Assembly: GCA_973895155.1 (NCBI GenBank)
Contig: OZ316892.1
Coordinates: forward strand, 12,030,238-12,094,237
Length of the DNA: 64,000 nt
Direction of reading: 5' to 3'
Origin: Marsupella aquatica
Lineage: Eukaryota > Plantae > Marchantiophyta
In this document: positions 4,718-36,960 of the stretch, in pieces
Layout of the letters: each line of letters begins with the position of its first letter
Position numbering within the stretch: position 1 is the stretch's first letter
Made by a program: the position numbers and the translations under genes
Notes under the pieces: generated by a model
What the model saw: the letters and a program-made list of their open reading frames with translations, nothing else
Told to the model about the DNA's origin: nothing
Database searches by the model: none

Positions 4718-6832
4718 CCATACCACATGTCCGATTGTCCTAACTTGTAAAGTGCCCGTCGTGCTGTTGATGAGAATGGAGGTCTGAATAGCAGGCTAAT
4801 TGTTTTGTGTCTGCCTAGCTTTCTTTCTTAACTGGTGGCTGACAGTTTGGATTTGGAAGCTGCCATGTAAATATTTGGGAATATGAACTACCAGGGGGCA
4901 GGCAATAGCCAATTTGTTTCTCCATCTGGTTTGTCTGGCTGTTTAGTGGGTGAAAAGGAGCACTAGTGGGGATGCTCTTATGAGTGTTCCTTTGAATGTT
5001 ATCGTGGGCCATAACCCCTTGCCATTTGGCCTCAAGATTTGTTCATTTAAATCTCCTTGTGGTTGGCACGGATTAAGGCCATGATGACTCCTAAACATAA
5101 CCTATTGAAGACTCACAAGGAGGGTTTGCACTTGGTAACCCATGGTTTACCCTTCATGTATGTATTTATGTCTTTGACACACTCAGGGGAAAAACTTTCC
5201 TCATAATCATCCCTTGCTTTGTACAAAGAAAATCACACCGTCATTGCTTGATCAAGCTATCAAACAACATCAATTTATATGGAGCTATTTATAAATGACA
5301 GGAAACAACAATTAAACAGTAACTGAAAACACTTATTGATACCTGCCAGGAAAATGGGTGGTAAAACATTTTGAGAAATTTTTTTTACTAGTCAACATCT
5401 TATTGTTAGCGTCCAGCACTAGCAAGAAGATGCAGTGTTTCTAATTATTTGGAAAATGAGATTTTAAATAATACATTTTTAGACCATCATTTTTTATGGT
5501 ACCAATCAAACTGTTTGCTGTTTGTTGCCGCAGTTGCAATACCCAGGGCTTATATGTTCATGGTCATGGCGCACCCCTTCCTGGGGACCAGGGTTGTGTG
5601 TATGTGGCTAAATCATACATACGCTCTATACCCATAAAGGGGTAGGCCGCATTTTTGGCCGCGTTGATGCAGATACATTAAAGAAGAGCCGAGCTTTTTC
5701 ATTGGCTGAATTTAGCATGTATTTGCTCTTTGAGTGAAAAACATATGATGGCTCCCATGCAATTCAGATGTGAGGAGCCTGTATTTTTTAGAAACTATAG
5801 TAGAATCATACATAATTTCTTAAAGAAATAAATTTGAGGCACATTTTGTAATTGTGGCACACCAAGATGAGAACATCTCTCCAGTACAGTTCCACCCGTC
5901 CAGTTCCTCCTCCAATGCTCCTCGAACAGGAAAGGGCGCACCATCTTTACTTTAAGTAGTTTGTTATTACGTCTTAGATACAGCTCTTGGACAAGGACAT
6001 TCTCCCCAAAAAAGGTGGATGGGTTAAGCCTAATGTGCTTTCCATTCTGGGACGTGCCTGTCTCCAAGGCATTAGATAGCTTTAAGACGGAGATATATGG
6101 TTTTTCCCCCTAAATTTCTTGTCATTTATTAAAATCAACCTAGAGGCATTTTTAGACCTAGGAGCGCTGTCAACAAACTGTCCCAGGGTGTTCACAATGG
6201 GGGTAGAGGGAGATTGTCCCAAGTAAAGCTATACAACATACAATTCACTTGCTCTCAAGGGACTCCCATGCCAGTCCTACTTTCAAGACCTCCTGCTTTA
6301 TCTCTAAAGGGACTGTTCCCCAATCCACTCCTTGAATTTTCCCTTCCGGCCTTTGCTCTGACCCCAACACACGGGTCCTGAGAAATAGTTGCCAAGTACA
6401 AACAGTATGGCTGTTTCAATTCTACTGGACTGAAGTTATTCACTTGTTGCATGGCCATATATTATGTACAGACTGAAGACCTTCAGTGTGTAACGCAGGC
6501 ATACTTGAGTATTCGAGACCACAAGCTTCGAGCAGGAGCAAAACGTGTGCAAGAGAGTGCACTTGACAGCCTTGGGAGAAGCTCTGGATGCACGTTGACA
6601 GATGTTGGTGCCAATGTAGTTAAACATTAATTTAGTGAATGTTTATGGTAAGGCATAAGACGTGGATGGTTGGTGCAAGCATAGGCATGGATGTGGTCTA
6701 GCAACACTTACAACATGAGAATGTTAACTTGGAAAAAGGGCATATATAGCAGTTGGGAAAGTTTGGGTATTGAGGCCTGCAAATACTTTTGCGATTCTGA
6801 CCATGGGTGCAAGCCCAAATTAAAGTGCTAGC

Positions 6833-7176
6833 TGTTAGATATTGCTCTAGTCTTGTGACTCATGAGCTAACTACAGTTAGGCTAACTCGGGTTAGGACTT
6901 AGCTAATGTTAGCGGTAGTGCTGTTGTGCATATAGCCAGGGCTGATGCCAGACCCTGGTGGAACTTAGGCTCATTGTTACGGAGCTAGTTGAGAGATAGG
7001 AAGAGCTTGTGCTGTGGATGCTTGGTATGGCCGGTCAGCCTAGAGTGCAGTAAAGCTCTTGTGTGTTCCCGTGGACGTAGCCTCATGTGGAGGTGAACCA
7101 CGTATCTCTCTGTGTCGACTATTGTGCATTGGATGGTTCATGGGCTTGCCGTTGCGAATGTCGTCTATGCTCAACA
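6833..7176 (+). mobile_element. Solo LTR, family A (copy 1)
   Basis: TGTTAG...CTCAACA ends; flanks CTAGC/CTAGT (4/5 TSD); its 3' ~220 bp clearly match 16242-16464 (reverse complement) and 32140-32374. Confidence 0.85.
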
Positions 7177-7469
7177 CTAGTTGGGGTAACGCTGGATACA
7201 CCAGTCCTATGCCCAACGCAGACCACTGATGCAGACTTGCAGATGGTCTAAAGTGTCAAATACTCTGCTTGGCAATAAGGGGCCATCATCACCAGCTATC
7301 TTTTGCCATTGACACAAAGTTCATGCTATTAATGCAAATATGCCTGCTGGCTGTCATATTGAAATAGAGTAGTGCTAACACAAAGCTGATGCTATTATTG
7401 CAAACATGCCTACTAGGTGTCATTTTGAACTAGAGTAGAACGCTACTTGTAGTGTTCACAATTTTCCAA

Positions 7470-7640
7470 TTTTCAGGGTTTGTTTCTAGTGCCCACATTC
7501 AGATTACAATGCCCATCCACAAAACACATTCTCAGGGATTGTCTCTAGTGCCAAATAATACAATGCCCATCCACAAAAAACATTCTGAGGGTTTGTCTCT
7601 AGTGCCCAGATAATACAATGCTCATCCACAAAACACAACC
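7470..7640. repeat. ~57-bp tandem repeat, 3 copies
   Basis: AGGG.TTGT.TCTAGTGCC..A..TACAATGC.CATCCACAAAA.ACA repeated. Confidence 0.8.
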
Positions 7641-8506
7641 CTATGACGTTTCATATGGTGTTCAATCCAAATCTGCATGGTTAAACGTCCTTTTAAAGTT
7701 TCACATATATATGAACTTTGGCTAAATGCCACGATGCTAAAGAGTCCTTAACCCCAAACCCTAAACTCTTTCACTGAACTAGAAAAATATATTACCTTTG
7801 TTTCCATGTCTGAGCTAACCTAGGGTTGGAATTGATGGCAGAATTAACCCTTATTCTCATTCCTGTCCTGTCTCCCGCCCAGTGCGCCATATGGTTAACC
7901 TCAAGCACATGGTTAAACATATGAATTAGTTTAATTCATGTCCAAAAATAGGGGCAATTTCTCACTTAGTTTGAAATGAGGGTAAACAGGTGCTTTCTCA
8001 TTTTTTCAGGGGCAGGTTCGTTAAAGCCTGATATTTTCTTTCAGTTGTTATTTTCCTGCTGTAGTTTAAATTTGTGCTTTGGTACAACTTGAGTTTGGAC
8101 GCAATATATTTGCTAGCACTCTGAACAGTTTGGGTTTGAGTTTGGCAGCAATGCCATCATCTAGTCCTGTGTTCAAGTATTTATCCTCCAAGCCTTTGGG
8201 ACATGAGCACCCTGACTAATGGAACAATCCGAATCACCATCTACTTGAATGTAACTGGCCAACAGGTTAGTTACTTCTAGGGCAAAGCACCATAACCCCG
8301 TGGACTGGAACTTGAAGTGCCAAAGGTCATGGGCTGAACTGCCAGGAGACAATATTGGAGACCCAAGGGTCAATCATGGTGACAATTTTGTGATCTGGTG
8401 GGTGTGAGTATGGCATGGTAGTGATGGGTGACACTGTGCAAGAACGCAAATCACCTCGTTAAGTATTGAGAGGAATTTGCAAGAGTTCATTAGGTTTTGG
8501 GTACAT

Positions 8507-8612
8507 TGATTTAAGGTCTATCAGGATCTATCAACAGTAAGGACCATTCAGGGGTCATGTACGCTGATTTAAGGTCTATCAGGATCTATCAATAGTCAGG
8601 ACCAGTCAGGGG
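8507..8612. repeat. ~58-bp direct duplication
   Basis: TGATTTAAGGTCTATCAGGATCTATCAA.AGT.AGGACCA.TCAGGGG occurs twice. Confidence 0.75.
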
Positions 8613-8751
8613 ACGGTCATGTATGGTCAGGATCACTCTGTCCCCACAAGTAACACTTATCATTTTGGGGGTATGCAAATTGTTTTTAGTTTTGCATAGA
8701 TACTGGCAAGCGACACATTGTGGCTAGCGCAAAAGCAGAGAGAAAAAGTTT

Positions 8752-8763
8752 TTTCTACTAGTG
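8752..8763. mobile_element. Orphan right terminus of a CACTA element
   Basis: TTTCTACTAGTG is the exact reverse complement of the CACTAGTAGAAA terminus at 37493. No matching left end was found upstream in the window. Confidence 0.45.
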
Positions 8764-10158
8764 ATATATTTCATGTAAATTCTGGATGTTCTTGTGGAAC
8801 TACCTTCCCCTACAAGGATAAAATCTATAGTTACGTGGACCCGCAGAGGAGCTCAATGCTGACTTCTAGAAAAGATAGATAGATTGAATCTATGCTCAAC
8901 GTCTAGAAATTTCCTTGCAGAGTGTCATCAAGCACTCTGTAGCCGGACCTCCACTAGGTCATGCACGTGAATTAGTTTCTCTTCATATGAAAACATTGCA
9001 AGAGTCCACACTTTTAGCTCCAAGATGCTGTCACCAACTTTCTCAGAAATCAGTCTGGTACAAAGAAATCTTACATCTTAAGGTGGTTGGTTTGCGTACT
9101 TTGCCACTTACTTGGCTGCAGCAGAGACAAAGATTGATATCATCATTCCAAAGACAATTCGAAGTTGGCAGGTCCATTATTCCATTGTAGCATGACCTGA
9201 AAATTATGATCAGATGTATTCGCATACTTAACACATAATTTTCTGCTACCATGATAGGCCTATAGAGAAAGGCCTCTGGACGAGTACCTACAGAATCAAG
9301 ATAGCTTCTACGGGACGTTCAATTTGTGTGGCAGCCTCGCCTCCAGGGCAGTGAATGTCAACATGATTGTGTCATCGACCCCTAGACATTAAAATATTCT
9401 ACCGTAAGTCTTTCTTTTTCTCTAAAGTATTGCCTGTTTCTTTCCAGTCCACAATGTTGAATTGTTGACCCATTCCTAGTGGACCGAAGGTCCTCATGGA
9501 TTCAGCAGTCAAAGAGTCGGGAAACACGGCTAGTGGACCCCACTTAAGAAACGCGTTGTCTGCCCAAAGCGACTTAGAAATGGCCCATCTTCCTCTGTGA
9601 ATTGACCGTGAGCACATATGAGCATTATCAGTAGTGCTTTGTGACGGAGGAGCCCGGGGTTGATCAGCTACAGTCCCTAGACTAAAAGCCAGATCCTGAG
9701 ACCGGCATTGCTGAAGCAGAAAGACGAGGTTGACGTGAGTGACGGATGTGTGTGGGTCAAGATTGAGAATCGCTCTCACGGTCAATTCACGGAGGAAGTC
9801 GATCAGCGAGTCGAAGAATCCATTTCAGCTCTGCATTGCATAAAAAGTTCATGATTCTGCATCCTTCCTTGAATTCAACGTGATCTAGCATCTAAAATTT
9901 TCTCATCTCGATCCATTGAAAATGATTCGTCTGATTCTAGGGTGCAATTCACCTTGTCAGCAGCTGAAAGTATCAGATGTGTTTCCATCCTCCGGCTTCT
10001 TCTCTCGAGAATCGAGTGCGTCGGCATATCTCAAGTCCTATATCTTCTGTGCTTACCAAATGTAAATGATGAGATCTCTACAACTGGACAGTACTACGGT
10101 AGCATCTTCTTCCCTTCGAATAGAGAGCCCACGTTCTACCCAGGTTTTTCCTAGCGTG

Positions 10159-13100
10159 ATGATAATAACAGAGGTGAACTCCTGCGTAGACCTGGTGCTT
10201 AAAGCTTCCAAGTTTGCTAACGAGCTCAAAGATGGTTGGTACAAAGGTTCCGCAGAGGTGGATTCGTTCAAAGCCCAAGTCTCGATACTTCGTCAGAAGC
10301 ATGATCAGTGGAGCGCTCAGCTACGAAGACATGGGATTTCGGAGGACGAACGACTTTTGCGGGCAGTGCAGGCAGCCTTTGAGATTCTGGACGAGCAAGA
10401 GCAATACGTGAGCAGACTCCAGAAAAGTCCTCTCTTGCGATTGAGGAGAAAGGCATTCCCAGGCCAGCTTACATATGTTTTGAGAAATGTTGCGGACATC
10501 GTGGACGCTGGGCCTCAGTTGCTGACCACAAGGGTTAATACGTTTGATGTATTGGAAAGAGTCGTAGCCCAGACTCCGGCACCATTGCCTTTTATTCCGG
10601 ATCCCAATTACGTCCCGATTACAAACTCTGTTTTGGAGATACGAACTGCGTTGGAGGATGAACAAGGCCCTCGTGTAGTGACGGTGTTTGGAGGGCCAGG
10701 ACTGGGAAAGAGTAGTGTGGTGAAATATTTAGCACTCCAGTACGAAGAGGAGAGAAAGCAAGGCTTAACACAACCCCAGCGCAAGGCACTCAGTTTTCCA
10801 GATGGAGTGTATTATTTGTTTTGCGGAAAGGATGCTCAAGACAGAGTGAAGCAGTTGGAGGTAGAGCTGGTCGAGTGTCTAGGCTTTGGACCCGGTTCAA
10901 GTTCAGCTCCACCGAATGACCAGACGGGTAACGGAATGCAGGAAGGCGCCTATATTCAGCTACCGTCACATCAAATGAAGCTTAGATCACGCTTAGCTGA
11001 GCAGTACTTGCTCATTGTGCTGGATGATCTATGGGAGCGGAAGGCATTGCAACACCTGTTGCAAATGGTTCCTGCGAAGGGAGTACGATATCTCGTAACA
11101 TCCCAGATGAAAGAAATTTGGGGTCCGGCAGCAAAAATCCAGATGAGATATCCGACTGTTGCAGAAGCTAGGCAAATCATGTCTAATTATACAGACGGAC
11201 TTCCGACGAAGGGAGAATTTCCTCACAACATTCAGGTACAACTTCAAGTCGTGCTACTGTCATTTTCTGTCAGAGATCAGGGAACTGCGTGTACATGTCT
11301 TTCTTTTACTTGAATTACTATTGTCATTTTCTGTCGGACTTCAGTAACTGCCTGTACATGTCTTTCTTTTACTTGAATTACTATTAGCAGCCTTTGCGTC
11401 GTTGGTTGCTGCCATCCGTTAAAATTGTACAAGCACTGTGATCTGAAACAGTATTAGAAACTGTTATCTATTAAGCCTTTACTGATTTCGAGCATTTTCC
11501 GTCCCTTGTAGACTGTGACGGATGCAATCATAGAGAACGTAGGTTACCTTCCACTATCTTTGGCTGACGTTGGCACCAGCGTCAACAGTAGCAGAGCAAC
11601 TGATGCAAGCCATTGGAAAGCGATCAATGATAATTTAAATCATGTTCTTCTTCACGAGGACGACTTTCAGCTCAGTCCGGTTATGTATGAGAAATCTTAC
11701 AATCTCACATCCGGGGCCTCGATGATGCTCATGGTGGAGTCTTTAAGTCCAGATGCAAGGCGACTCCTCTTCATGATTGCACTACTAGGGGGCGACCATT
11801 TGCCAGAAACCCTGGTGAGGTATTTTTACAAACGGATTCAACCGGCTCAATCCACAGATATGGACAGGCTGAACTACGAGAACCAGGAGAAGTACCTGGC
11901 AGATAGGTCATTGGTAGATTTGCACATGCAAGGAAATGCGTCAAGGTGGGAGAGGATGCCCTACATGCACATGCGGAGAACGGTGGCTGGCCATTGCTTG
12001 AGGATGCGCCTCATTCGGGAGAAGAATTAAAACTCTCGATGTTCGGTCTATCGCTGCTCAAATCTTAGAAAGCAGTAATCAAGGTGGAACTGAAGTTATT
12101 GAGAAATGGGATGCAGAGGCAACCCTTGTTAAGATCTTGAGTGCAGTTTACTTCCAAGAACCGTTCACGGACGTCGTAGTAAATAGTCTCGACAGGCATC
12201 TTCGAATCCTCGATGATGGCACCATCCCTCGGAACGTCAGTACGGGCATCGATCCACATGATTTTGTGAAAAGAAGTACGACAAGGTTCCAAATCGAAGG
12301 TCTAGTTTCGCTTATTGACGTCGATCGTGAAGATCCTGCTTGGAAGCAGCAAGCATATGGGTATGCCAAAAAGGTAAGAATACTAATCCTATTCTGCCAA
12401 ACTATTTGCCTGCAAATGCCGTACTACATATCTTAGCTGAAAAATCAACACTGATTAGTGATGCAACAATGTCCAGTTTCTTCGTTCTACGTTTTCAGCG
12501 TCTGCAGTAAAATTGAAATCCACACTGACTTGGTGCGCAACCGACCTGAGAACAAGATGTAAGATGGAACAGAATAGAAATTCTTAAAGCCAATGGAACT
12601 GCCAGCCTATCAAGCTTGGATAGAGCTCACAAAACCAGAATGTCAACATTAAAGCCATCATAGCATACTTAGTAAACTGTAGATACACTTCGTCTTTCAT
12701 CTGGTTTCTGCCAATCATAAATGATTTACTAATGACATTTACATTTCTTATTTGGTGATAGATAATTATCAAGCTAGCCTGTCAAGGGAAATTGGACGAC
12801 TACAGTATGGCAAGCTTGCTTCAACTCCCTCAAACAACCTCAGTTGCTTGTGAAGTACTCGAGAACTACGTTTGGGCCTTTCCTTCCTACGATGGAACTG
12901 AAACATTCTCAAGTGCACATGGCGAGACAATTAATACTCTGCTCGCTCTCTTGCATGATGATGGTGTATCAACCACAAGACGAGTTTGTGTAATCAGGGC
13001 TCTTGCGAGAGTGCTTGACTACGAGAGCAAAGACATCATCCTCAGCGTGGCCGCTAAGTATATGGAACTGCTGGCCATGGATTTCAGTAACTCTACACTC

Positions 13101-15672
13101 CAGATTGGTGTAGTGCAAAACCTTTATGTAATTGGTAACTCTCCCACAAGAGCAGCATTACTAATGGGCGAATTTACAGGAATTTTGGATCTCCTCATGG
13201 AGTTACTAGTCTCCGGGAAAGACTTCAAGGTCCGAGTTTCTGCAGCAGATACCCTCCGCTGGTTCTGTCAATGGAAGTTTACTGCCCTGAAAGTAGCAGC
13301 CATACCAGACGCTCTCGAAAAGCTGTTCAATATGTTCGTCACAACAGAGACACTCCAACAGGTTGCATCCCCTGAGCCGCAATATGCACCCAAATATGCA
13401 TTTCTCGGCAGCCCTTCATATTTGGCAGGACAGATTTTGGGTGACCTGTCGTGCGTGCAAGAGAACAGGATCAAATTTCGTGCCCTCCAGAGCAGGTTAG
13501 ATGGGTTTGGACATATCCTGGTTCGACTCAAGGGAACTTGGCAGGGCACTCTTAGCGAGAAGCGTCGGCCTGGATTGAGGGAACGAGCTTCTACAGCTGC
13601 CGGAATACTGGCTCAGCTAGCACGGGACAAAGAGCTGAGACATTCGATTTCATTGCCTGGGCTGGAGGAAGGTTTGCTATTCTTGCAACTTATCCAGACT
13701 GCTATGATCCCCCCGTATTTCCCGCGGGACCTTCGGGTCAATAATTCTACGATGGCGCTCACAAAGCTATTTTCCACTTCAACAAACCCAAGATCGAGAT
13801 GCATCCCGACTTTGAAACAGGTACAAGAAGTATTTTCTTCTGACGAACGTCCTCCAGCGATGAGAGCGGCGGCATGCTTCAGAATATATTGGAGTCGTGT
13901 TGAAATCCATTGTGAAATGGGGGCGTACGCTGAGGCTCTTGAAAACTTGGAACTCGCTCAACTGCATCTGGACCAGTGCCGGACTCCCGATCTTGACCAG
14001 GGCCGGACTTTGGGCGATTGGTACGTGACGACGGAAGGCTTGGTGGCGACGGGGTTTCTCGCAACAAAAGTGTTGAGGTATGCAACTGCTTCGCTTGTGT
14101 ATTTAATCAAATCCCATTTGGATTGGAAAAGTCTTGATTGAAACGCGGAGATAAGTTGACACTAGGAAAAAAAATATTTTAAATCATCAATTTCATCATC
14201 AATTTCATGTGTAAGTTGTGAGGGATCGGGACAACTCTCACGTTCTAATTTTGAGCTTGGCAACTACAACGCTCGAAGTGTAGCCACCTACGTGATGTCA
14301 ACAATTGTTACCAAAGATAGGATAGACAAGAAAAATCCCTCTTCTCCAGGCTGCTAGAGGCAGTACAATCCAACCGATTGGTTCATAATGCCTTTTTTTC
14401 AATTCATAAATAAGTTATTTTTAAGGTTGAAGCCATGGTCCCAGGAGAGCCCACTGCCCGCAGGATGCTGCCCAAATTGTCGCAGTGAGATTAACTTTCC
14501 AATACGTCTTTGTGCTGAGGTGGAGTCGCTGGGTTTGAAACCGGCTGCTGCCCCAGTACTTTTGACATAAACCCCACGGGTTGGGTGCAGAAGAAGCTTT
14601 TGACACTTAGAAAGAAAATGATGATTTTTGGTTTTTGCGGGCGTTCCATGCAAACAAGCAGCGGGCAGTTTAGATCACAAATGACTTTCCAGGTTCTCAT
14701 ATGGGTTGTCCGAAGATCACAAATGACTTTCCAGGTTCTCATCTAGCTGAATGCAACCCTTGCGCACCTGGTTCATCATACCTTTAGATAATTTGAAATA
14801 AATGATAAATTATGGTCATTAGATCAAGTTAGGATATATTTTTGTTTCTAATTTTGCAGTGCAATAATTATCCTGGCTGAATAATCTTCCCGGCAGATAT
14901 GGGTTCGCCCCATGCAGGTTTTAGGCTTCCAGATATTTAAAAAAATAAGAAAATTCCAAGTTGCTCCAAGCACCCTAAAGCCCTTTCTGGAGGGTAATGT
15001 CCCCAGAAAAGCGCCCCAGGGAAGCCTGCCCTATGGGCGGGCTTTCCCCACAACAATGCCCTTGAAAGAGGGCTTCACTGTGCACTAGCTTGTGTTGTGG
15101 CGTGTGAGGAATGAAGTTACTTTTGTCTCATGCTAATATTATCTTTTGCACTTTGACCATTCAACTGACTTACTAATCTGTCTCCACAGCCGTACTAGAA
15201 GACTTCTTCAAATTTTGTCAGGGCATCATGCAGGCGCCTTACTGGATGCAAATGAGGAGGTTGAGAGCGCCCAATTGCATGCAAATGAGAAGGTTGAGAT
15301 CAACAACTACAGCCATTTCTGGCTCTTGTTATCTGCTTTGAATGAAAGAGGAATCTTACGGAGGCTCTGTGGAGATTTACAAGGTGTGGAGATTTACAAG
15401 GGGCGCTTGATGACTTGGATGCGGCTTATCAGCTGGTTCAAGAACATTGGGCCTTTAAGTACTTCCTTTTTAATATCCTCAAGCATCGAGGCTACGTCAA
15501 ATATTTGATGAATGACGAAGGTGGAGCTAGGGCAGACGCGGAAGCTGCCCTACAGCAACCTCTCCAATATACCGTTCGCACTATTACAGATGAGAGGTGG
15601 TTTTGGGACATAGATATACTACCGATAAACTATCTGGGTTATTTTTCTTCCTCTAAGCCAAGTCTCTTCTAG
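10159..15672 (+). pseudogene. NB-ARC (STAND/NLR-like) gene: N-terminal helical domain - NB-ARC - ARM-like repeats - TPR; two frameshifts
   Basis: Exons 10159(or 10066)-11235, 11512-12373, 12762-14077 and 15190-15672 with phase-compatible GT..AG introns. P-loop VFGGPGLGKS, Walker B LLIVLDDLW, RNBS-B RYLVTSQ, GLPL-like YLPLSLA. Exon 3 has ARM-like helices; the C-terminus has TPR motifs (RGILRRLCGDLQGALDDLDAA, RGYVKYLMNDEGGARADAEAAL). Lesions: +1 frameshift near 12002-12027 and a 17-bp tandem duplication (15368-15401). Confidence 0.85.
11257..11386. repeat. ~64-bp tandem duplication in intron 1 of the NB-ARC gene
   Basis: TGTCATTTTCTGTC..AACTGC.TGTACATGTCTTTCTTTTACTTGAATTACTATT occurs twice. 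Confidence 0.8.
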
Positions 15673-16802
15673 ATTTGCTTCTTTCAGTAACTTTTGCATG
15701 GTTGATGCTGCTGCTGTCCTTAGTTGATAATCAAAGGGTGTCATTAATGTTGCATATTTTTTATCAAGCAGAAATCCTATGGTCAGGCCTTGAAGGCATG
15801 CTGAGAGTTCTGGCATTTTTGAACACACAAGGCAACTGGCAGGCAACCTGCCCTAGGAGATCTTGCATTTCAGAATGCCACCAGATTGGGCAGTGTTGCT
15901 GTTGGGTTGCAAACCTTGCTGTTTCTAAACCGTGTGACATGTATTTGATCAACTAAATATCTTTGGGACAAAATACAACCCAAATTAGTAATCCCTCAAA
16001 TAAGCTTATGTGTCAAAATTAATATGAGATTACGTTGTGATAATAAATGAGCACAAGCGCAGATGTGAGGGTGAATCTAGTAGATGTGTGGGGATGAATT
16101 TAATATTATTGTTCTTGTGAGGGCTCTAGCAGAAGAATATTTGGCCAAACCCTCGGTGGGATGGGAAATATGTCCGTGGTTCTCTGACCCTCTCTAAGCA
16201 CAGACCTGAAAGGATCAGTTCTTATAACATATCTCAGTTATTGTTGAGCATAGATGACAATCGTAACGGCAAGTCCATGAACCATCCAACGCACAAGAGT
16301 CGACACAGCTCAAAATACGTGGTTCACCTCCACATGAGGCTACGTCCACGGGAACACACATGAGCTTTAGTGCACTCTAGGCCGACCGGCCATACCAAAC
16401 ATCCACAGCGCAAGCTGTCTCTATCTCTCAACTAGCTCCATAACGTACAATGAGCCTAAGTTCCTGTGACGGGGTCCCGCCACGGTAAATCACCATTAGT
16501 GTCACCAGCAAGACACCTGTAAATAAATAAGCTGATAGACGCGAGTTTTTTTTAATGTTCTTTAAATCTATAAAGTTTTTTTAAAGCATCTCGGGATAGT
16601 CGGAGACCCCAACAGTTTTGTCTAGACCCGGGTTAATTATGGGGCAAAAACCTGGGGGGGTTTAAAATTGTGACTTTCCGGGAAGGTAAGGAAGTCCGGG
16701 AAATAAGCATTTTTAATTTTTTGGTAACACCCCTTCTAAAGCAACACTCAGGCAGGACTGGAGGAGTATGGGGGGTTTAATTAAACCCCCATTAAATCCT
16801 TC

Positions 16803-17220
16803 TGCGAGCTGCGAGCTGCGGGCCGCGAGCTGCAAGGGGCGAGCTGCGAGGTGCGAGCTACGGGCCGCGAGCCGCGAGCTGCGAGGGGCGAGGTGCGAGC
16901 TGCGGGCCGCGAGCCCTGCAGAGGGCAGGAGCTGCTGCGAGCTGCCGCGAGTGAGGAGTATGGGGGGGTTTTAAAATAAATCCCTCCTAAGGAGGTCCGC
17001 GAGCTGTCGTGCGAGGAAGGGGAAGCGTCCGCGAGTGAGCCGCGAGCCGCGAGCTGCGAGCTGCCGTGCGAGGAAGGGGAAGCGTCCGCGAGTGAGCCGC
17101 GAGCCGCGAGCTGCGAGCTGCGAGCCGCGAGCCACAAGCTGCGAGCTGCGAGCCGCGAGCCGCGAGCTGCGAGGGGTGAGGTGCGAGCCGCGAGCTGCGG
17201 GCCGCGAGCTGCGAGGAAGG
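16803..17220. repeat. GC-rich 7-mer array (GCGAGCT/GCGAGCC) in the upstream part of the 4.16-kb element
   Basis: Dozens of GCGAGCY units, with larger duplicated blocks (GGAGTATGGGGGGTTT; GTGCGAGGAAGGGGAAGCGTCCGCGAGTGAGCC). Confidence 0.9.
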
Positions 17221-17613
17221 GGGACTCCCGCGAGTCGGGACAAAGGAGGGCTCTGGGGCGCAAGGCGAAAAGCTGCTCCCGGGGGGTTTTCGTTGTTTTT
17301 TTCTCTCCCCTCTTTTCTCCTTTTCACACGACCCTTCTCTTGCCGAAAGCAAACTCGAGTTTCTCTCCCTTATTGCCGAAAGCTTTCTCCTTATGTTACA
17401 ATTATTTGAGCTTTCTCTCCAATTCTTCTCAAGGCTCACTCATGGGGGATTGCGGGGACTGTCAGGGCATTAACGACAGCAACATGGAGTGACGACGGAG
17501 GGGATTGAGAGAAATAAATTAATCGGGCTACGGGGGCTGTTTCGGGCCAGGGAATTGACATTGCTATGGGTGGCGGGATTTGGTGATTGAGAATTTGATT
17601 TCAGGATGCATGA

Positions 17614-19467
17614 ATGCTAGATCAACCGGAGTTTAGTGTGGCACGCATTCGGAGATACAAGGCTGCTTACCGTGACTACGTGGAGACTTTGATTGCAAGG
17701 GAGAGAGAAGAGAGAGAAGCTACGATGAGCACGGGATTGGCAGCAGGTTCCACACCGGTGGGTAGGAGGATTTTTCGTCGAATTTATCCCAAGACCTCCG
17801 CCAAAGTGATGGAGGATTGTCAGAATATTTTCCAAGCCACCGGGGTTACAGAATTCATGAAGGTGGAGATTACCATCCCTCCGGGGAAGAGCTGGGACAT
17901 TGAGGCCGGGATGGAGTTACGAACGGAGGGAATCTACTTTGAATGTCTCAAACGTGTAGTGCCCCATGTGGAGTTGGCTAGGCTACTGTTTCTGGGGAAT
18001 CAGAAATTCTCATTCACACCTCTACACATTAGGGGAGAACTCACGTTGAAGATGGTGGCCACTTGGGTGATTAATCCCACCTCCACCACTGCCATCCCTC
18101 TTTCCGTTGTCAAGGATGTTGAGTATAAGGGATTCCTGGCCAAGGTTCATCAACGGGTCCTTGGCAACGTGCAATCCGGGGTGGTGAATGAAGAGCATTT
18201 CATGGTAGCTATGGACATCAAGAACCACCCAGCCCATGTGTACGGATGGTGGTACTACGGGTTGAAGAAGCTGTTGGCCGCTGATCCCGGGAGTGTGAAA
18301 CCAGGTGGGGCTGTACATTTGATGGGGTCATTTGTATTGGCCAGGGCAGAAGGGTTGATTGGTTCCCCGGGACAGGAAGACACGGGATCATCTCTCACCA
18401 CGGAGATCCGGAGTATTGCCACTACCGTTATAGGGAAGCTCACGGAGGAATCATCGTCGGCTGGTGGGGATGAAGATAGAGGAGAAGAAAACCAGGATGA
18501 GGACTACACGTTGGAGTGGCTTGAATCACTCGTAGGAGATCCAAAAAAGCCCCTGGTCTACAACATTCCGGATGTTTACCTGGCAGAGCTACGGGATTTC
18601 AGAGAGGGAGTCCATGAGGGACTCAAGCTAATCCACGCATTGAGAGATTCTCTCAAGCATGCCTCAGCCAGAGTAGAGACGTTAGAGCAGAGTACCCTGT
18701 CTCTGAAGGAGGTGATCAAGGCCAAGGAGGGGACCATTCATGAGAAGGTTAAGCTTCTCCAAGCAGCTCACGTAGAGATCTCCAACTTGAAGGGAGCCTT
18801 GTCCACCAAGGCCAAGGAAGCAGAAGAGGTGGGAGCATTGAGACAAGCATTGGCCAAAGAGAAGCAGAATTCTGGAGAAGTGGTGGAGTGGAGAAACCAG
18901 GTGGGAGCACTACGGAGTCAGGTGGCCGCCTTTGAGACACGAGCAAAGAGGAGTGAGGCCTTGAGTCTGGGGAAACGGAAGAGCCCCGGCACACCTAGCT
19001 CCACACTTTCCCCGGATTTGATCTCCCAGGCTATTGAGATGGTGGTGAAGGAGGTTAGTGGGAAGTATGGGCCCTTGTTGGATGGAGCCAAGAAGAGTCA
19101 GGAGAAGAGCAAGGGCTTGGAGAAGAAGCTCCGGGAGGTACGGAAATTTTTACGGGAGGCTCAGGTCAATACGGGGATGCCACCCAGGTCTGTCACCCCC
19201 GGGACTCCCATGGCCACAGGGCAAGTTCTACCGTTGGAGTTGCGGTCCGGAGAAGAGGCTACCCTATGGAAGGACACCATTGGTGAGGGGTACATCAAGG
19301 CGTGGCAGGCCTTGGCCACTTTGAGGAAGCAAGGGAGCGGCAGCACGAAGAGTACCCCGATAAAGAAGAAGAAAAGTGAGGTGGCACTCACTCCCGTGAG
19401 TGATGAAGAGGAGGCCCACTCACGGGGCACAAGCCAGGGCACCGAGAGTGAAGAAGAGGAGGAGTAG
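17614..19467 (+). CDS. TE-borne 617-aa protein: globular N-terminal domain (reminiscent of plant retroelement accessory ORFs), acidic linker, long coiled coil, basic/acidic tail
   Basis: Uninterrupted 1854-nt ORF; acceptor-like TTTCAG| just upstream of the ATG; heptad-rich central region; KKKK NLS-like motif; poly-E C-terminus. Family assignment is tentative. Confidence 0.75.
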   Translation: MLDQPEFSVARIRRYKAAYRDYVETLIAREREEREATMSTGLAAGSTPVGRRIFRRIYPKTSAKVMEDCQNIFQATGVTEFMKVEITIPPGKSWDIEAGMELRTEGIYFECLKRVVPHVELARLLFLGNQKFSFTPLHIRGELTLKMVATWVINPTSTTAIPLSVVKDVEYKGFLAKVHQRVLGNVQSGVVNEEHFMVAMDIKNHPAHVYGWWYYGLKKLLAADPGSVKPGGAVHLMGSFVLARAEGLIGSPGQEDTGSSLTTEIRSIATTVIGKLTEESSSAGGDEDRGEENQDEDYTLEWLESLVGDPKKPLVYNIPDVYLAELRDFREGVHEGLKLIHALRDSLKHASARVETLEQSTLSLKEVIKAKEGTIHEKVKLLQAAHVEISNLKGALSTKAKEAEEVGALRQALAKEKQNSGEVVEWRNQVGALRSQVAAFETRAKRSEALSLGKRKSPGTPSSTLSPDLISQAIEMVVKEVSGKYGPLLDGAKKSQEKSKGLEKKLREVRKFLREAQVNTGMPPRSVTPGTPMATGQVLPLELRSGEEATLWKDTIGEGYIKAWQALATLRKQGSGSTKSTPIKKKKSEVALTPVSDEEEAHSRGTSQGTESEEEEE

Positions 19468-20899
19468 ATAGTCGTACGGATGTGGTTGTACGGCCTCTAG
19501 ATTTCCAACTTTTTTGTGAGGGGTCACTCACGGGCTTGTTGGAAAGAGCTCGCGGAGCTGATTCCAACAAGAGGCGGCGCTCCTCAAACGGAGCCAGGAT
19601 GAGCAAGTTATGGCCCGGCGAAATTATGTTTTCGCGATACGGAAACGACCATAACTCAGGCGTCCGATGTCCGTTGCGAGTGCGACTGAGTGATTCGGGA
19701 TCAGGAGGAGAAGAGCTATCCAAGGGTGAGCTCAAAAGTACAGTTGATAGGGCACCTAGTTTCAGCCATTGTGGGGTGCCTTGCAATTTCAGGGTTCACG
19801 GAGTACAGTTGGGGCGCCGTCGAAGGCACCATCGGCCCCTTGTTTAGGGTTTAGGGTTTTAGCAGCATGTGTGTGCCGCATGCCTTTTAGTTTAGGGATT
19901 TCTTAGTGCAGGGTTTTAGCGGCGCCGCTAGGGTAGCCGCCATCGTTGTGACCCCATGAGGGGTGCTTTGGTGTGGTTTTTTTTGGTATTTAGGGGGAGA
20001 GCCCCTGAGTAGTGAAGGGGGGGAACTCAGCGTAGTACTTGGATGCTTTGGAGTAGCTTTTGTGAGTAGCGCACCGATTAGGAGAAGTTCAAGCCAGAAT
20101 AGTGAGGTGGAGAACGTAGCACTTGTCCCCGGGAGGCAGGAGTTGGGCAGACGGTAGGAGGCCGGGTTGTCCTTGCATGTGTTATGGGAAACACCAAGAG
20201 ATATGGATTTGGCTTGAGGTTCCAATATTTTGTGTGTCACTTGTTGTTGCTTGTGTTGTTTGTTTTCCTCCCCTAGTGCGTGTGGTCGGTGTCGTTGTGG
20301 AAACATTTGCCCTTGTCACTAGTGTTCAAATCTTATTGTAAATGTTGGTATGCTTGCCCAAGAGAGGAGGGGGGTGGTGACAGCACTCACCCGGTGGGCA
20401 TGAGTTGTAGATGGTAGGACCAGTCCCTTGGACTTGATCAAAAACGGAGAGACCAGTCGGTAGACTTGATCAAAAAGTACACTTCCGGGAGCGGAATCAA
20501 ACATACTCATCCTTAGGTGTGGAAATCCTCCAAATAGTGTCCCTCCACGACCCCGTAATACGATACCAACGGTTTAAGCAGGGAAAAGTACGGTTTGCAC
20601 GTATTACTCATTGGATAGGCAAGTGACAGTTCCCTCTCTCCAAGCAAACACCGTTTGGTTATAGAGTGTGCACAGCATGACTAACCTAACCAAGTCTGCG
20701 ACTAAGGTTAGCCTTAACTATGGTACAGTCGCAACTCTAGACCTAAGAGTAAATCCTAACAGTTATTAGTGTAAACAATGTTATCTGAATCAAATTAAAT
20801 GTTCCGAGCAAGTCCATCCAAGCATTGCCAGTCCATCTGGGCTTTCATAGACAAAGTGGAGGTCCATCCAAGCTTTAGTTTTGCAAATGTGTGATACAT

Positions 20900-22210
20900 T
20901 TTGAGAGGTAATAAGGACAACCACTGGCAGTTTTGACTTTCACACGTGCCAAAACTCCTGCCGTACCCCATCATAGTATGCTAGTCCTGAGCTGGTTTTC
21001 AGGCACGTGCCTTTGATGCTTTTTTCACCCAGACAAACATGTGTTCACTTGGGGGAATTGGGGGATAGTTTTTTGGGGGCACAGTTTGGCGAGAATATAA
21101 TTATTGCCAAAAATCCTTATACTGCATGTATACTTATTAGACCTCTGTTTGTGAGATATGTCCACTTCTAGTTGCATTGGATGCACCTCATTTCACTTGT
21201 CAATGGAGAGAAATTCAAATTCTGGGAATGAAGTGAAGTAAGGGGTGGGATCTCCATTAAACTGACCTGACCTGACAAGGGAGTCTTCCAGGGAAATATA
21301 TCCTCTCTTTGAAGACTCTTCTGAGTTTGATTCCAGACTCAGTTGCATTCTGAGAGCCATGGTTTTTACCGAGAGATGGCCAATTAGTCTGATCTAGCTG
21401 CCTCAAATCCTGTGGATCTTTGGATGAACTCGCTCCATTGTCCCTATCAGACTCACCAACCTACCAGCAGGAGGCGAGAGGTAATCACCACTGTTCTTTG
21501 GAACAGACAAAGCCCCCGTCTTAAGAGCCTCTCCTTGTGAACACCCCGCCTGATTGTCCCACACAGTCGCCACTATTTCAGGTGAGATTGACAAAAGATG
21601 AGAGGGAATGTTGCGTTGTTTATTATTGAATGGTCTCTCGTCTACCCGCTCGTCTAACATTCTGAAGTCATTGTTAGCCCTGGAAGGAACCTCTCTCATA
21701 GAATGCTCAGGGGCTGGCAGATAGGAATGGGCACACCCCTTTTGCAAGAGAAAAGGTCCAAGTGGCACTAGGAGAATATGAAGCATCCATGGGGGGCAGC
21801 GGAGAAGAACAAGTGCAATCGCACCAAGATGGCTCTGATATTGAAATGTTAGAATATGAATCTTGTATCGCGAAGAGTCAAATTAATCAAGAAGGAACGT
21901 GCACAGAAACTAGAGTTGAGAGCTTCCCCATTTGATCACAAGAAAAAGGACAAAAAGTTTGAGGATAGAAGATCAAAACCGTTTCAATCAACTAGGGAAG
22001 AGAACATGGATATAGACTCCCCTCACAAGTCAAATAGCAAGAAACGTAATTATCAACTAGCGGTTGCAACATTGCTTGAGAAAAGTGAAGGTCACTTGGA
22101 ATGCCTAATTAGCAATCAGGACAAGAGCTGCATATGGGTTCTCTATCTAAATCTTTCTGATCAATCCTGAATGTTTTGGTCCATTCAAGAATTTTGGGCA
22201 AGGGGAGTAG
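20900..22210 (-). mobile_element. Degraded 5' end of an LTR retrotransposon (LTR, tRNA-Met PBS, decayed gag-like region)
   Basis: GCTCTGATA (21832-21840; reverse of the TATCAGAGC PBS core) lies next to a TGTTAG LTR end at 21847. The adjacent coding region is degenerate and boundaries are approximate. Confidence 0.4.
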
Positions 22211-26149: not shown

Positions 26150-27299
26150 ATGTCTTCATCTTCTGAAATCTCCACCACAGACTCGTCCTCCTCTGATGAA
26201 GATACACCACCTCCACCTCAACATCACACGACCGCACCTCCTCCTCGCGGTCCACCCCGTCAACTTTGTGAATGTTCCAGATGTGTGGGTCAGGTTTCCC
26301 AAAAATCTTACATATGTGCCCAACATATTGAGAGATATGGGCGTTGTGGACGTCATACGGCAGGGGCTTCTTCATCTCATATGGTAAGTGTTATGCCTTA
26401 GTTTTCCTACCCTATTCCCATTACTCAATGGTTGAAGGTTTGCAATTTCACACCTACTTTTGTTTGTTTTGGTTTCGGTGGAATAGGTATCCAATAGGCC
26501 TAGACCTGCGGCACAAGCACCCTATGTCCCATCACAAGGTGTTCTAGATGCTATAGGCAATGCATTCTCAAAAGCCTTGGGTCTAGCAAGGCCCACCAGT
26601 CCTAGGGAAGTTGGGGTTGAGGCTATTGTCCCAAGAGGGAGAAAGCGTTCCAAGAGGCGGGCCCGAGGGGATACTGATTTGTACAAGGCAGTGGTTACGG
26701 GTCGGTGGGGTGATTGTGAGTTCACTGGCAGATGTGTCCCTATCATCAAGGACTGGGATCCTGAGACTCTTGGTTTGCCACAACAGCTTTCCTACGGTGC
26801 GGAGGTAGAGGTTTGGGGTAGACGTTGGGTTATCAAACCTTCCACAGTTGGGGATAAACATGGCTATGGATTTTTTGCCTGTGAGGACATCATTGTGGAC
26901 GCCGAGAGTGGTAGAGGTGGACGCGGCCGAGAGGGGCCTACTTTGTTTCCTTATGGTGGACCCATCTACAAGAGAAGACATTGGAACATGATCCTTGCAC
27001 AACACCCTGAGTGGAAGACTTATGCATTGGACATGGATACTTTTGATGGAAACACTAGAAGGTATAGTGAGCAGCGTGTCATAGATGGGGACCCCATACG
27101 GACTGGGAATATTGCTGGTTTCATAAACAGTACCGTGGGGACTCGCCCTAAGCGTAGGCAAAATTGTGAGTGGGTTTTCATTGAGGGTCCTCCGCCAGCA
27201 CCTTATGGCCAGACATATCATCATGACCATTGCCTAGTTGTAGCAACAAGGACCATTAACTCAGGGGATGAGTTATTTACTCAATATGAGTGGGATTAG
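26150..27299 (+). CDS. Two-exon SET-domain protein (348 aa) with an N-terminal transposase-associated Zn motif, inside CACTA 1
   Basis: Exon 1 26150-26383 (CECSRC..HIERYG; donor GTAAGT, phase 0); acceptor AATAG| before 26487, in frame. SET motifs: IKPSTVGDKHGYGFFACEDI, PYGG, IDGDPIRTGNIAGFINS, NCEW, ATRTINSGDELFTQY. Confidence 0.85.
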
Positions 27300-31959: not shown

Positions 31960-34900
31960 GCCTCATGGAATGTTTGTGGCTTGTGCAAGCCAAATAGAAA
32001 ACATGTAGCGAAAAACTGGGTTTAGACTTCCTTGAAAATACCTATGATGGCTCTTTGTTAGAATTAACTCTTAGGTCTAGAGTCACAACTATATTGCTGC
32101 ACACACACTATCCCCAAATGGTGTTTGCTTGGATAGTGGGAACTCAGGCTCATTGTTACGGAGCCAGTTGAGAGATAGGGAGAGCTTGTGCTATGGATGT
32201 TTGGTATGGCTAGTCAGCCTAGATCGAGTGTAGTATAGCCAGAGTATAGCTCTTGTGTGTTCCCGTGGATGGAGCCTCATGTGGAGGTGAACCACATATC
32301 TCTCTCTGTCGACTACATGATTGTTGGATGGTTATGGGCATGTCGTTGTGAATGTTGTCTATGCTCGATCAACACTCTTGCCTTACAAGAAGTGAAGGCG
32401 AACGTTTTTAGATTAGTCAATGCAATGAGACTTCTTCTTCCTAGATATGAGGCAGTCTCTTCTTTTCCAGATGAGGGGAGAGGAGGGACATCATTACTTC
32501 TACATCTATTGCTGAGGATTCTTGAATCAAGATTAATTGATAAAGGGCGAGCAGTATGGGTAAGAGTGGAACACACGAAAGGAAATTTTGGGCTCATTAG
32601 CATTTATGCTCCAAACTCCCCACAGGAACACCCTTTACTTTGGCACAAACTTAAAAATGTTTTGCCTCAAGAAAAGTGGATATTTGCGGAGACTTTAACA
32701 TGACAAAAAGCATAGACGACTCATCTGGACCTTCACCACTTATTAAGGGAAGAGAGGAGGAGTTCTGGAGGTTTCTAAAAATGAGACTCAACCTAGAAGA
32801 TGCAATCATCATTGTTGAACAAGAGTATGAAGGCTCCAAATTCACTTGGAGAAGAACGATCAATGGAAGGCTTGTACAGTCTCGACTTGATAGATTTTAC
32901 CTGAGTGAAAGAGGATGGTGGACAGGTGAGACTGTGAAATTAAAACATGATAGAGGATCTGCATGCTCTAACCATGACCCGATTCTTCTCAGGTTCAGAC
33001 TCATCGGGAGACTCATGGTAGTGGAAGTGGAAGAGGAGGGAATGTAGTATCACACTAGGAGCATAAATCAGTTTTTAAGGTCCAAAACGTTACTGGTATT
33101 TGTTCCCATGGAAAAACAAGTAAGGAATGATTTTCTATCATTTAACACTTATGAATGACTAAGGTAACAAAAACCCAGGTTTGAGCCTTTTACTATGGTT
33201 GTTCATCAAGGCATAGATTTGAATGTTTGCTTAACATTGTAAATAAAAATAACAAAATGGAAAAAATTAACAAAATACAAGGAAATCTTGAGGTATAATG
33301 ATGGAGTCTGAAAAACACCCAGGTAACTTCTCCTCAATATTTCATTTGATGTGATTTAGGTGGTATATCCATAAGAACATTTTTGGCAAGGATTTTTATT
33401 TTATTTTATTTTATTTTAATTTTATTCCGCGTGAACCCCACGGATGGGGAAAACAAGCAGGCCAAAAGGTTTTGGCAAGGATTATTGTACTAGGATGATC
33501 ACTAAAATGCCGTCAACACGTCTCAAGTTTTTCTTCCAAAGGTACTCAGAAGAAACTAGTCACCAATCACTTTGATATCCAATCGGTACTCCGAGTCACG
33601 AATAATAAACACCATCATGATCAAATTGAAGTCATAAATCATTGATTGTAAGTAATTATTCTTAGCATCCCATGCTCAAGCAAGGTAACGCCAACAATTA
33701 TGCATCAAGAACTCAAGAAGATGGGTTGTCACCACTTAAAGAACCTATTCCCTCATACTTCTGAAATTCACCCTCATACTCTTTTTGCCTGAACAAAATG
33801 AGCTTGTGTCTCTCTATTTGGGCTACTAAATTCCTCTCCTTAATTTACTGGAAGAACCATTCTTGTGAAACATGTATTGCAAGCAATCCCGATTTACCAC
33901 ATGATGTTTTTACACTCATCAGAAGCATCGGTCAAAACTATGATAACTTTATGCCTAGATTTTCTTTGGGGATAGAAAGTGATGGGAGGGAAGAAAATTC
34001 CCCTCGTGGTGTGGGGACAATTACCCGACCCAGAGTTGATGGAGGTCTGGGCCTCAAGAATTTTAGAAGCCACTCAGATGCTCTTCTTAGTCAATGGTTT
34101 AACAAGACTCTAGATTCACCTGCATCGGAATGGGCTCAGTTACTTTATGCCAATCTCAAACTTGCAAAATGGAGAAATAGGAAGGGCATTAGAAGGAATG
34201 GCTACTCTTTAGTGGATTGTCTCTTGCTCTGCTACCCCAGATCATTCAGTGGACTCATGTACACGGGTCATCTATGGAAGGCGTGGACAACATTACGTAA
34301 GCATCTTATTTTCTCCCTAGGTGAGTCAACGGTGGAGGATGTACCTTGGGCCCTTTTCCTGATTACCCCTTGTTATTTCCATTTTAGTATTAAAAGTTCC
34401 CTTATTACCGGTAATAATTATAATTATTAGTTCACGTCCTCCATGTATTAGTTAAGACTGAGGGCTCAGGGAGGATGTACTTAGATGTATCGAGGGTTTT
34501 CAGGTCCTGGATGATGGTTCTATATGTGCCATAGTTAAAGGATGTGGACGAATTGGCCTGAGTGAAGAAAATATCAGACTTTGGCAAGGATGGAGTGACT
34601 CCTGACAATTTAGGAGACAGGCTTGACACGATCAGAGGGATGGAAGTGGATATAAAGGAGTTATGCCTTTGGTTCATTTCCTCCATTAGATGCACAATAG
34701 ATAGGGCTATGACAGGTGGTTGGGCCTTCCAGTGGAATGGTCAGATAAGGATGTGAGACTTTGCAAGTTCACTATTCCTAATGCAAGAATGTATGATTTG
34801 CTGAGGCCTAGAGGTTTGGATTACATTAGACTTAATCGGATCTGGGAGGCGACAGTTGCAGAACCAGAATGGAAAATTATTTGGCTTTCAGTATGGCAGT

Positions 34901-35384: not shown

Positions 35385-36960
35385 AACAAGGAGGCTCGAT
35401 TCCATATTTGTCATAGTTGAGCTTGGATATTCCTTACGACCTTTGATCCACCTCCCGTAGCTTGATCTTGTATATCCACTTGCTGTCCACCACTTGCTGA
35501 CCCTTAGGCAGCTTAACAAGCTCCCAAGTTTTGTTGTCCTTCAGTGACTGCATCTCTGTTTGCATTGCTGCAGTCCACTTCTACTTCTCCTTTGAAGCAC
35601 TTGCCTCATCAAATGAAGAAGGTTCCCCTTCTTCCAAAATTAACGCATCACCCTCATCATCAGCTGCAAAATCGTCCTCTTGCAGTTGAGATGAATCAAC
35701 CCACTGTCCATACCTAAGAGGAGCGCATACAGTGCGACCAGATGTTCTTCTAGCCGATGACTTCGGTTGAATTACGTCTACTGGTACAATTTGAAGCTCA
35801 GCAGCATCTATTTGCTGCTCAGCAGCATCAACAAACTCCTCTTGTTCCTCTGACACAGGAACCAGCTCCATACTTGGAGCACCTCCTTCTCTCCAATCAT
35901 GCACTTCATGATCAATCTCCCCCTCAACAAGATCCGAGATATGAGATTTTCCTTTGTCAATACGGGAGACCTGAGTATTCTCCCCCTCCTTCAATAATCT
36001 AGATTCATTGAAGGAAACATCCCTACGGACAAAGAGCTTACAGGCAATAGGATCCCATAGCCTGTAGGCCTTCACACCACTCTGATACCCAAGAAAAATA
36101 CATTTCTTGGATGTAGGATCCAACTTGGTCTTATTTTGCTTTGGTGTGAGAGCATATGCATCACTTCCGAAAACTACCAAGCCATGATAGTCTGCTTGCC
36201 ACTTATAACGCATTTCAAACGTCGTTTTGAAATTGATTGCACTAGAAGGAGAAAGATTTACCAAATAAGCTGCAGTATTGACAGCTTTTGCCCAAAATTC
36301 TTGTGGTAAACCTGATTGGCTTAGCATACTCCGTGACCGCTCTAATAGTGTTCGATTGAGCCTCTCAGCGACACCATTCTGCTGTGGAGTATAAACTATG
36401 GTGAGATGACGAGTTATCCCCTGTTCTGCACAGTACTCTTCAAATTCTATTGAAGTGTACTCCTCACCGTTGTCTAACCTCAGACCCTTCACCCTGGTAT
36501 CCAAACACTTAACCGTGTTTCTCGTTTGATTCTCCACTTGGGCCTTTCGTTTTGTAAAAATGGACAAGACATCAAACTTATGCGTCATGAAATAAATTCA
36601 TACAAATCTCAAGTAATTGTCAATAAAAGATACATAGTACAATTTTCTAGAATGTGAAGGAGTCGGGGATGGTCTCCACACGTCACTATGTATGTACTCA
36701 AGAATCGCTTTGGAACAATGAGTTTCAACACCAAAAGCACGATGATGTTGCTTTTCAAAAATGCAATGCTCACATAAATCCAATTTACAAGATTGCAAAT
36801 CAGAAATGAGCCCATTCTTTCGCAAGATAGTCGTGAATGCCATAGTTGAGTCATTTTCTCGTGAGACTTGGTTACATTGGCCTCTCCATATACTATATTG
36901 CCCTGTAGCACATACAAATTATTCTATCTGCTCCCCTTCAAAATCATTGTCTCTCCCAAC
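35385..36960 (-). mobile_element. Ty1/copia pol fragment (GAG-pre-integrase, integrase, start of RT)
   Basis: LWHSRL, CEHC, IHSDVW, LRLDNGEEY, YTPQQNGVAERLNRTL, KLDPTSKKCIFLGY, EPSSFDEA, then W..AMQTEMQSLKDNKTWELV. Integrase precedes RT; stops and frameshifts present. Confidence 0.9.

Follow-up and report, generated by a model that had tools for sequence, protein, structure and literature searches.

The 64,000-nt stretch of contig OZ316892.1 of the liverwort Marsupella aquatica analyzed here (the window, in which all coordinates are given) harbors a 4164-bp element, TGTGAC...GTGACA (nt 16465 – 20628), that is probably a solo long terminal repeat (LTR) with a gene inside it. The gene is a 617-amino-acid (aa) open reading frame (ORF), and the element is a member of a dispersed multicopy family. 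There is a fair case that this abundant unit represents a solo LTR left by an Ogre/Tat/Athila-type Ty3/gypsy retrotransposon, and that the gene specifies a protein of predicted PMD/VANC fold that would act on the element's own chromatin. What is likely to be new here is the position of an extra-ORF-type gene within an LTR-like unit of a plant, as the fold group itself is already known.

Termini and insertion site

The element has inserted into an older, smaller repeat, a 351-bp solo-LTR-like unit with TG..CA ends and its own perfect target site duplication (TSD), GTTAT (nt 16242 – 20761, − strand), which is split by the 4164 bp of the insertion. Two paralogues of this host repeat are uninterrupted (nt 6833 – 7176 and 32056 – 32374), the second of which spans the insertion site with a single GTTCC, and many contigs of four public sequencing runs join across the site without any insert. 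Because these three observations fix the element boundary independently, the ends and the TSD cannot be attributed to chance. The junctions read GTTCC/TGTGAC...GTGACA/GTTCC, exactly at nt 16465 and 20628, with the duplicated GTTCC at nt 16460 – 16464 and 20629 – 20633. With the boundary set in this way, the probability of a chance 5-bp duplication is about 0.001, and that of TG..CA ends about 0.004. An integrase-type insertion is thereby demonstrated, and the TG..CA ends and perfect 5-bp TSD proposed in an earlier reading of the sequence (the first-pass annotation) agree with both the empty paralogue and the empty-site joints. Together with the split copy, this 320–350-bp host repeat is found three times in 26 kb, and it is much commoner in the public runs than the 4164-bp element itself.

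The terminal inverted match, TGTGAC/GTGACA, extends to 5 of 6 bases, so that the element has TG...CA ends with short, imperfect inverted termini. It has no terminal inverted repeat (TIR): inverted matches number 12/30 and 35/150, and only 5 of the first 6 are in register. The first-pass annotation was also correct that the element contains neither an internal LTR pair (its two ends gave zero match in blastn with a word size of 7) nor gag/pol (Pfam returned only coiled-coil noise). An inner pair of 8-bp inverted sequences, TGTCACCA (nt 16499 – 16506) and TGGTGACA (nt 20375 – 20382), has no flanking duplication, and its right copy directly follows a 15-nt purine run.

The unit could alternatively be a complete non-autonomous element with the gene as cargo, mobilized by an integrase-like DDE enzyme acting in trans, whose footprint would be TG..CA ends and a 5-bp duplication. 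A primer binding site (PBS), a polypurine tract (PPT) and a paired copy were not seen, the even contig depth along the unit (see below) is equally compatible with this alternative, and integrase-related DNA transposons, the GingerRoot elements, are known in bryophytes and lycophytes (PMC6839031). GingerRoot elements are, however, described with a 6-bp TSD and TIRs of 100–150 bp (PMC6839031), whereas the element has a 5-bp TSD and no TIR beyond 6 bp. A GingerRoot transposon is ruled out by that TSD and by the 35/150 terminal inverted matches. Mutator-type carriers of VANC/PMD genes, for their part, have longer TSDs, which also argues against this alternative, and it is considered improbable.

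Repeat family and contig depth

Contigs from the best four of seven public runs (two studies; none on record as RNA) were aligned to nt 15900 – 21200. Contig depth is a rough measure that does not give copy number, and only orders of magnitude and within-run ratios are used here. The single-copy flank had depths of 87.5, 109, 4.4 (12–17 by other single joints) and 23.9, the last being run X4. A sister subfamily of about 93% identity formed long, unbranched contigs with depths of about 6000 (X4), 1600 (X3) and 5500–11000 (X2), or roughly 50–360 times single-copy depth, while contigs nearly identical to the element stood at about 10–40 times (a rough figure) from near the left end through the leader and in pieces of the ORF and trailer.

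Depth was even along the unit. In X4, where the flank was 23.9, the sister subfamily gave 6189, 6330 and 6328 over the ORF and 6048 (nt 19587 – 19836), 5908 (about nt 19900) and 6067 (nt 20443) over the trailer; in X3 it gave 1583–1664 over the ORF and the trailer as far as nt 19836. Among near-identical contigs the left end and the leader agreed to within about two-fold (505 vs 455–699 in X4, 1360 vs 1108 in X1, 264 vs 180 in X3). No clear doubling of depth was observed near either end of the element, unlike the expectation for short LTRs around an internal ORF. It is supported by these data that the ORF and its flanks behave as one repeat unit of a high-copy family and, as depth stays even rightward from the ORF until the last 185 bp, the 4.2-kb unit is the unit of the family rather than a one-off deletion.

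These results bear directly on another explanation, in which the element is a deletion or recombination derivative, the outer parts of two LTRs having been joined around an internal region that held the extra ORF. Plant extra ORFs described in the literature consulted all lie between LTRs, a 15-nt PPT-like purine run is followed by TG (nt 20360 – 20376), and the left 1 kb differs strongly between subfamilies, all of which would suit such an origin. The two ends of the element, however, share no sequence, and the sister subfamily in X4 is at single dose at nt 20443. This position lies downstream of the purine run, and a short 3' LTR would be expected to raise the depth there two-fold or more. 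The near-identical contigs, at about 10–40 times single-copy depth, also occur from near the left end through the leader and among ORF and trailer pieces. With no similarity between the ends and an even depth, a deletion derivative is disfavored and rather unlikely. In this copy the ORF lies inside a unit without an internal LTR pair and of even depth, and not in an internal region. The proposal of the first-pass annotation that an LTR carries its own gene is partly supported: the LTR-type insertion, the single multicopy unit and the conserved frame (see below) all speak for it, and the unit itself is a probable LTR.

The 617-aa ORF and its homologues

The ORF occupies nt 17614 – 19467 (+ strand), where each of the other frames has 18–32 stops, and is intact and coiled-coil-forming by prediction, as first annotated. 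Its product consists of an N-terminal helix, a globular domain (aa ~57–241), an acidic linker (~280–300), two coiled coils (~320–451 and ~467–520), a conserved block (~533–578), a basic KKKK at residue 584 and an acidic tail. The six sister-subfamily pieces listed cover 1765 of the 1854 ORF bases at 93% identity, and their single gap is of 3 nt, in frame. Among the indels listed (12 of 53), ten are inside the element, of which nine break the frame (about six events), and all nine fall outside the ORF (p ~0.005 for these listed indels if uniformly distributed). The trailer of 1161 bp (nt 19468 – 20628, + strand), another feature correctly recognized at first pass, has the same depth as the ORF and is conserved along with it across subfamilies, but carries indels of 1–2 nt. 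Its landmarks are four TTTAGGG words (nt 19843, 19850, 19891 and 19989), a G/T-rich patch (about nt 20165 – 20290) and the purine run that starts at nt 20360. The four TTTAGGG words, which are of telomere type, are all on one strand (nt 19843 – 19995); the other ~59.8 kb of the window has 15 on both strands.

A phmmer search of 1.84 billion proteins recovered 14 homologues at E ≤ 0.001, with 26–61% identity and collinear along the protein. Ten of these were looked up, and comprised four proteins of the leafy liverwort Calypogeia fissa, five from Logan and one from ENA. Since the sister subfamily preserves the frame and the homologues number 14, the ORF is a real gene; sequence comparison also supports its being under selection and conserved in liverworts. 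A homologue of 45% identity starts at the same Met (nt 17614). The in-frame stop just before this ATG is absent from most copies, so the family's frame may start further upstream or be spliced.

Predicted fold of the N-terminal domain

Pfam recognized no family in the N-terminal domain (aa 50–263), even at E ≤ 10, no DUF1985 or DUF287 in the 617-aa protein, and no PMD, ATHILA, Transposase_32 or DUF1985 in the 15 members of the alignment. Searches of PDB and BFVD with weak models of the protein gave zero matches. An Atlas feature search with aa 40–270 placed three clusters at the top with a score of 0.85, among them clusters containing PF03078 ATHILA (17% of members) and PF20167 Transposase_32 (56%); these scores lie below the 0.9 bar and are a lead only. 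A Calypogeia homologue, P0010, aligns to aa 57–241 with 27% identity (pairwise E 5e-19). By Atlas features, its domain scored 0.89–0.90 against PMD and DUF1985 clusters. By predicted structure (aa 12–205), eight of ten rows had TM 0.59–0.70 over 171–186 residues, including Transposase_32, ATHILA (73%), PMD (14%) and DUF1985 (75%) clusters; the other two rows had 0.31–0.33. The fold match is between predicted models on both sides, with the query linked through the P0010 alignment, and since all P0010 structure rows fall short of the score at which the tool names a family, the claim is limited to the fold group. On these models the N-terminal domain very probably has the fold shared by PMD, ATHILA-ORF, Transposase_32 and DUF1985 (VANC), and is followed by the long predicted coiled coil. 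The protein is then likely to be a distant member of a known domain group of retrotransposon extra ORFs, unusually placed, and not a new type.

The tandem array and upstream region

Upstream of the ORF is an array of 7-bp units (nt 16804 – 17236, + strand), with 26 copies of GCGAGCY and 37 of GCGAG in a single orientation, and with higher-order periods of 14, 42 and 57 bp. The array has 72% G+C and a CpG observed/expected ratio of 1.2. All 26 copies of GCGAGCY, found within 476 bp, are on one strand and there are none on the reverse strand (2000 shuffles gave a mean of 0.18 and a maximum of 3), which amply confirms the array reported at first pass; in the ~59.8 kb of the window outside the element only 3 copies occur. 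Blastn self-matches identify a spacer unit heading an array block (nt 16761 – 16800, + strand), with a second near nt 16953 – 16990; the first holds a 20-bp palindrome (nt 16771 – 16790). By the drop in contig depth, the array is the part that differs most between subfamilies. Identity to the sister subfamily is under 85% left of nt 17504, which makes the array region the fast-changing part of the unit. U3 regions of LTRs tend to change fast.

The array is followed by a T/C-rich stretch (nt 17265 – 17464, + strand; T 36–37%, with a 30-nt pyrimidine run at nt 17296), which bears out the pyrimidine-rich leader of the first-pass annotation and could represent a 5' leader or else lie within an intron. 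A motif scan gave a consensus-like candidate splice donor, AAG/GTAAGG (nt 16683 – 16692, + strand). A candidate acceptor, TTTCAG/G, is present at nt 17604/5 (nt 17599 – 17605, + strand) as had been annotated, but its pyrimidine tract is weak, and by the same scan the leader lacks a consensus donor, the nearest being at nt 16685 and 17175. Because of the weak acceptor and the missing donor, we can only infer that the element contains a complete transcription unit.

The first-pass annotation had suggested that the array could be the binding site of the encoded protein. This guess gains weight from the predicted PMD/DUF1985 (VANC) fold, as VANC binds dense arrays in the same orientation (PMC5735166). 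The short motifs bound by VANC proteins are reported to be densely spaced and uniformly oriented, and to lie in fast-changing tandem repeats, some of them in introns (PMC5735166), and the VANC DUF1985 domain is reported to resemble the PMD of MAIL1 (10.1101/2024.04.02.587720; 10.1101/2024.09.27.615353). PMD-C proteins are reported to oppose Polycomb silencing at short motifs, and teloboxes to be Polycomb-recruiting motifs in Arabidopsis (10.1101/2024.09.27.615353). An array-binding, anti-silencing role like that of VANC is the best guess for the protein, though one that can be advanced only tentatively, and that the LTR is a self-contained anti-silencing module, in which a VANC/PMD-fold protein is combined with its own tandem target array, appears unlikely.

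An explanation with a probability somewhat short of even is that the element is a solo LTR with a gene, as proposed here, but that the protein does not read the array, which would be an ordinary U3 enhancer for host factors. The protein could have another accessory role (nuclear import, particle assembly or target choice), or it could act only from a full-length element, for example by splicing from the 5' LTR to the acceptor at nt 17604; in a variant, the LTR would have the minus orientation and the gene would be antisense to it, an arrangement found in Retand. Several points are in keeping with this: ATHILA-ORF, Transposase_28 and retrotransposon PMD proteins are reported as being without an assigned function (PMC7264820; 10.64898/2026.03.20.713144), the scan found no consensus donor between nt 17176 and the acceptor, and arrays are reported in about half of Retand clusters (PMC11963269). 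Both experimentally studied branches of the fold group (VANC and MAIN/MAIL), however, are described as acting at short motifs against silencing, and the present array is, like VANC targets, one-stranded, dense and variable between subfamilies.

Comparison with known elements

The extra ORFs of Ogre/Tat/Athila elements (PMD PF10536 with a coiled coil, Athila ORF-1 PF03078, Transposase_28/32) share with the 617-aa protein a predicted fold group followed by a coiled coil. Among the extra-ORF domains in Ogre, Retand and Athila, PMD, Transposase_28 and Athila ORF-1 are given as the most frequent (PMC6317226), and PMD plus coiled coil is a described layout of Tat extra ORFs (PMC4408406). These elements are also alike in having a tandem array nearby, LTRs in a very long size range and a 5-bp TSD (PMC6317226, PMC11963269); LTRs outside the chromoviruses are reported to reach about 5 kb, with TSDs of 4–5 bp (PMC6317226). 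A liverwort genome is reported to contain Tat, Athila and Phygy lineages (PMC12885004). A clear difference is position, as the known extra ORFs are described upstream of gag or between pol and the 3' LTR (PMC6317226, PMC7264820), while here the gene is inside the TG..CA unit. That plant extra ORFs normally lie between the LTRs, as the first-pass annotation held, agrees with the accounts in PMC7264820, PMC6317226 and PMC3485330, and a literature search in a limited library found no plant case of an ORF inside an LTR. The protein also differs in having no Pfam match by sequence and in its liverwort host, moss Tat-like elements being reported to lack extra ORFs.

The VANC proteins of VANDAL (Mutator-like) transposons are represented among the fold neighbors by DUF1985 clusters (TM 0.59). 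A coiled coil is predicted to serve dimerization in VANC21 (10.1101/2024.04.02.587720, PMC5735166), and the 617-aa protein is likewise coiled-coil. A dense, same-orientation, fast-evolving motif array in non-coding DNA beside the gene is a further shared trait (26 GCGAGCY, 0 reverse). Unlike the VANC carriers, the element has LTR-type ends, a 5-bp TSD and no transposase. MAIN, MAIL1 and MAIL2 (PMD-C), of the same predicted fold group, are reported to act at short motifs against Polycomb, often near teloboxes (10.1101/2024.09.27.615353); the trailer has its four TTTAGGG words, but MAIN/MAIL are host genes and the present gene is on a multicopy mobile unit.

Rice elements of the Retrosat2/RIRE8 type are described with LTRs of more than 3 kb, many solo LTRs and an extra ORF of unassigned function (PMC3485330). 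Their ORF0 is upstream of gag-pol, the LTRs are said not to code for replication enzymes, and no LTR ORF is described in the relevant part of that source (PMC3485330). Outside plants, the sag/naf ORF in U3 of mouse mammary tumor virus (MMTV) likewise encodes a protein from within an LTR and has a promoter of its own upstream (PMC9412291). MMTV is, however, an animal retrovirus and its protein unrelated, whereas here a 617-aa ORF lies in a 4.2-kb plant unit.

Probable origin and possible function of the element

The favored history is that a full element integrated at this site and that its two 4.2-kb LTRs then recombined to leave one. The LTR would have grown by capture of an extra ORF, which in related lineages has its place between the LTRs, for example through a shift of the plus-strand priming site. 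The protein, whose N-terminal domain is predicted to fold like those of the Athila/Ogre extra ORFs, MAIN/MAIL1 and VANC, might dimerize via its coiled coil, be recruited to the GCGAGCY array and shield the LTR promoter from silencing, comparable to VANC in VANDAL. Array and protein would then be expected to drift together by subfamily.

Several observations weigh against this interpretation, in addition to the absence of a Pfam family and the sub-threshold fold scores given above. Neither a full-length element nor a PBS, a PPT or a second copy of the LTR was seen, and the status of the unit as an LTR rests on its ends, TSD and size; nor was a related locus found in metagenome or viral contigs. 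Contig depth shows a two-fold step in X2 (11087 at nt 19288 – 19530 vs 5561–6143 further right), and in X3 a near-identical contig near nt 20188 – 20455 reaches 757 against 180–264 on the left. The last 185 bp of the element gave no subfamily-resolved depth and, with identity below 85% left of nt 17504, the sister subfamily may not share the array. Only 9 of the 20 bases upstream of the candidate acceptor are pyrimidines, and six upstream ATGs lie between nt 17393 and 17610. Among the 13 ORF codons for which substitutions are listed (40 of 450 substitutions, a non-random set), only three have synonymous changes, a count that cannot alone demonstrate purifying selection at the amino-acid level. 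Both structural models are of low confidence (pLDDT 51.5 for our own, 0.51 for the Atlas model of P0010). Moss Tat-like elements are reported without extra ORFs (PMC4408406), and tandem arrays are reported as common in Ogre/Tat/Athila-type elements with no known cognate protein (PMC11963269).

Other features of the window

Pfam matches in the window, which is eukaryotic, include an NB-ARC gene, pieces of CACTA-type transposase and a copia-like integrase. The NB-ARC gene (nt 10066 – 14141, + strand; PF00931, E 1.7e-07) is followed by an ARM/HEAT-like ORF, resembles an unusual NLR-type gene, and ends about 2.3 kb left of the element. A SET-domain ORF (nt 26487 – 27299, + strand; PF00856, E 2.1e-05, above the cut-off) is directly upstream of CACTA-type transposase pieces (~27.5–30 kb), and is possibly chromatin-modifier cargo of a CACTA-type transposon. 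A further CACTA-type element (nt 41670 – 48534, − strand) carries Transposase_21, DUF4218 and DUF4216, with BRCT and NSD-like PHD ORFs immediately upstream on the same strand. A copia-like integrase fragment adjoins a 24-bp tandem array of seven copies (nt 35581 – 37345), and another tandem array (nt 60323 – 63981) consists of about six units of 520–600 bp with 60–95% identity.

Implications

Plant LTRs are regarded as non-coding, and a gene of this fold group in an LTR, beside an array of a single word, provides a protein and a motif that can be tested together. Even without expression, the gene provides a connection between the PMD/VANC fold group and a repeat family of a liverwort. If solo copies are expressed, LTR recombination would remove the element but not its regulator, which hundreds of copies could then supply. 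Should the LTR indeed be a self-contained anti-silencing module, each LTR copy, whether solo or not, could protect the entire family from silencing in trans, the extra ORFs of Athila, Ogre and Tat would gain a function, and VANC-type systems would extend to retrotransposons and to liverworts.

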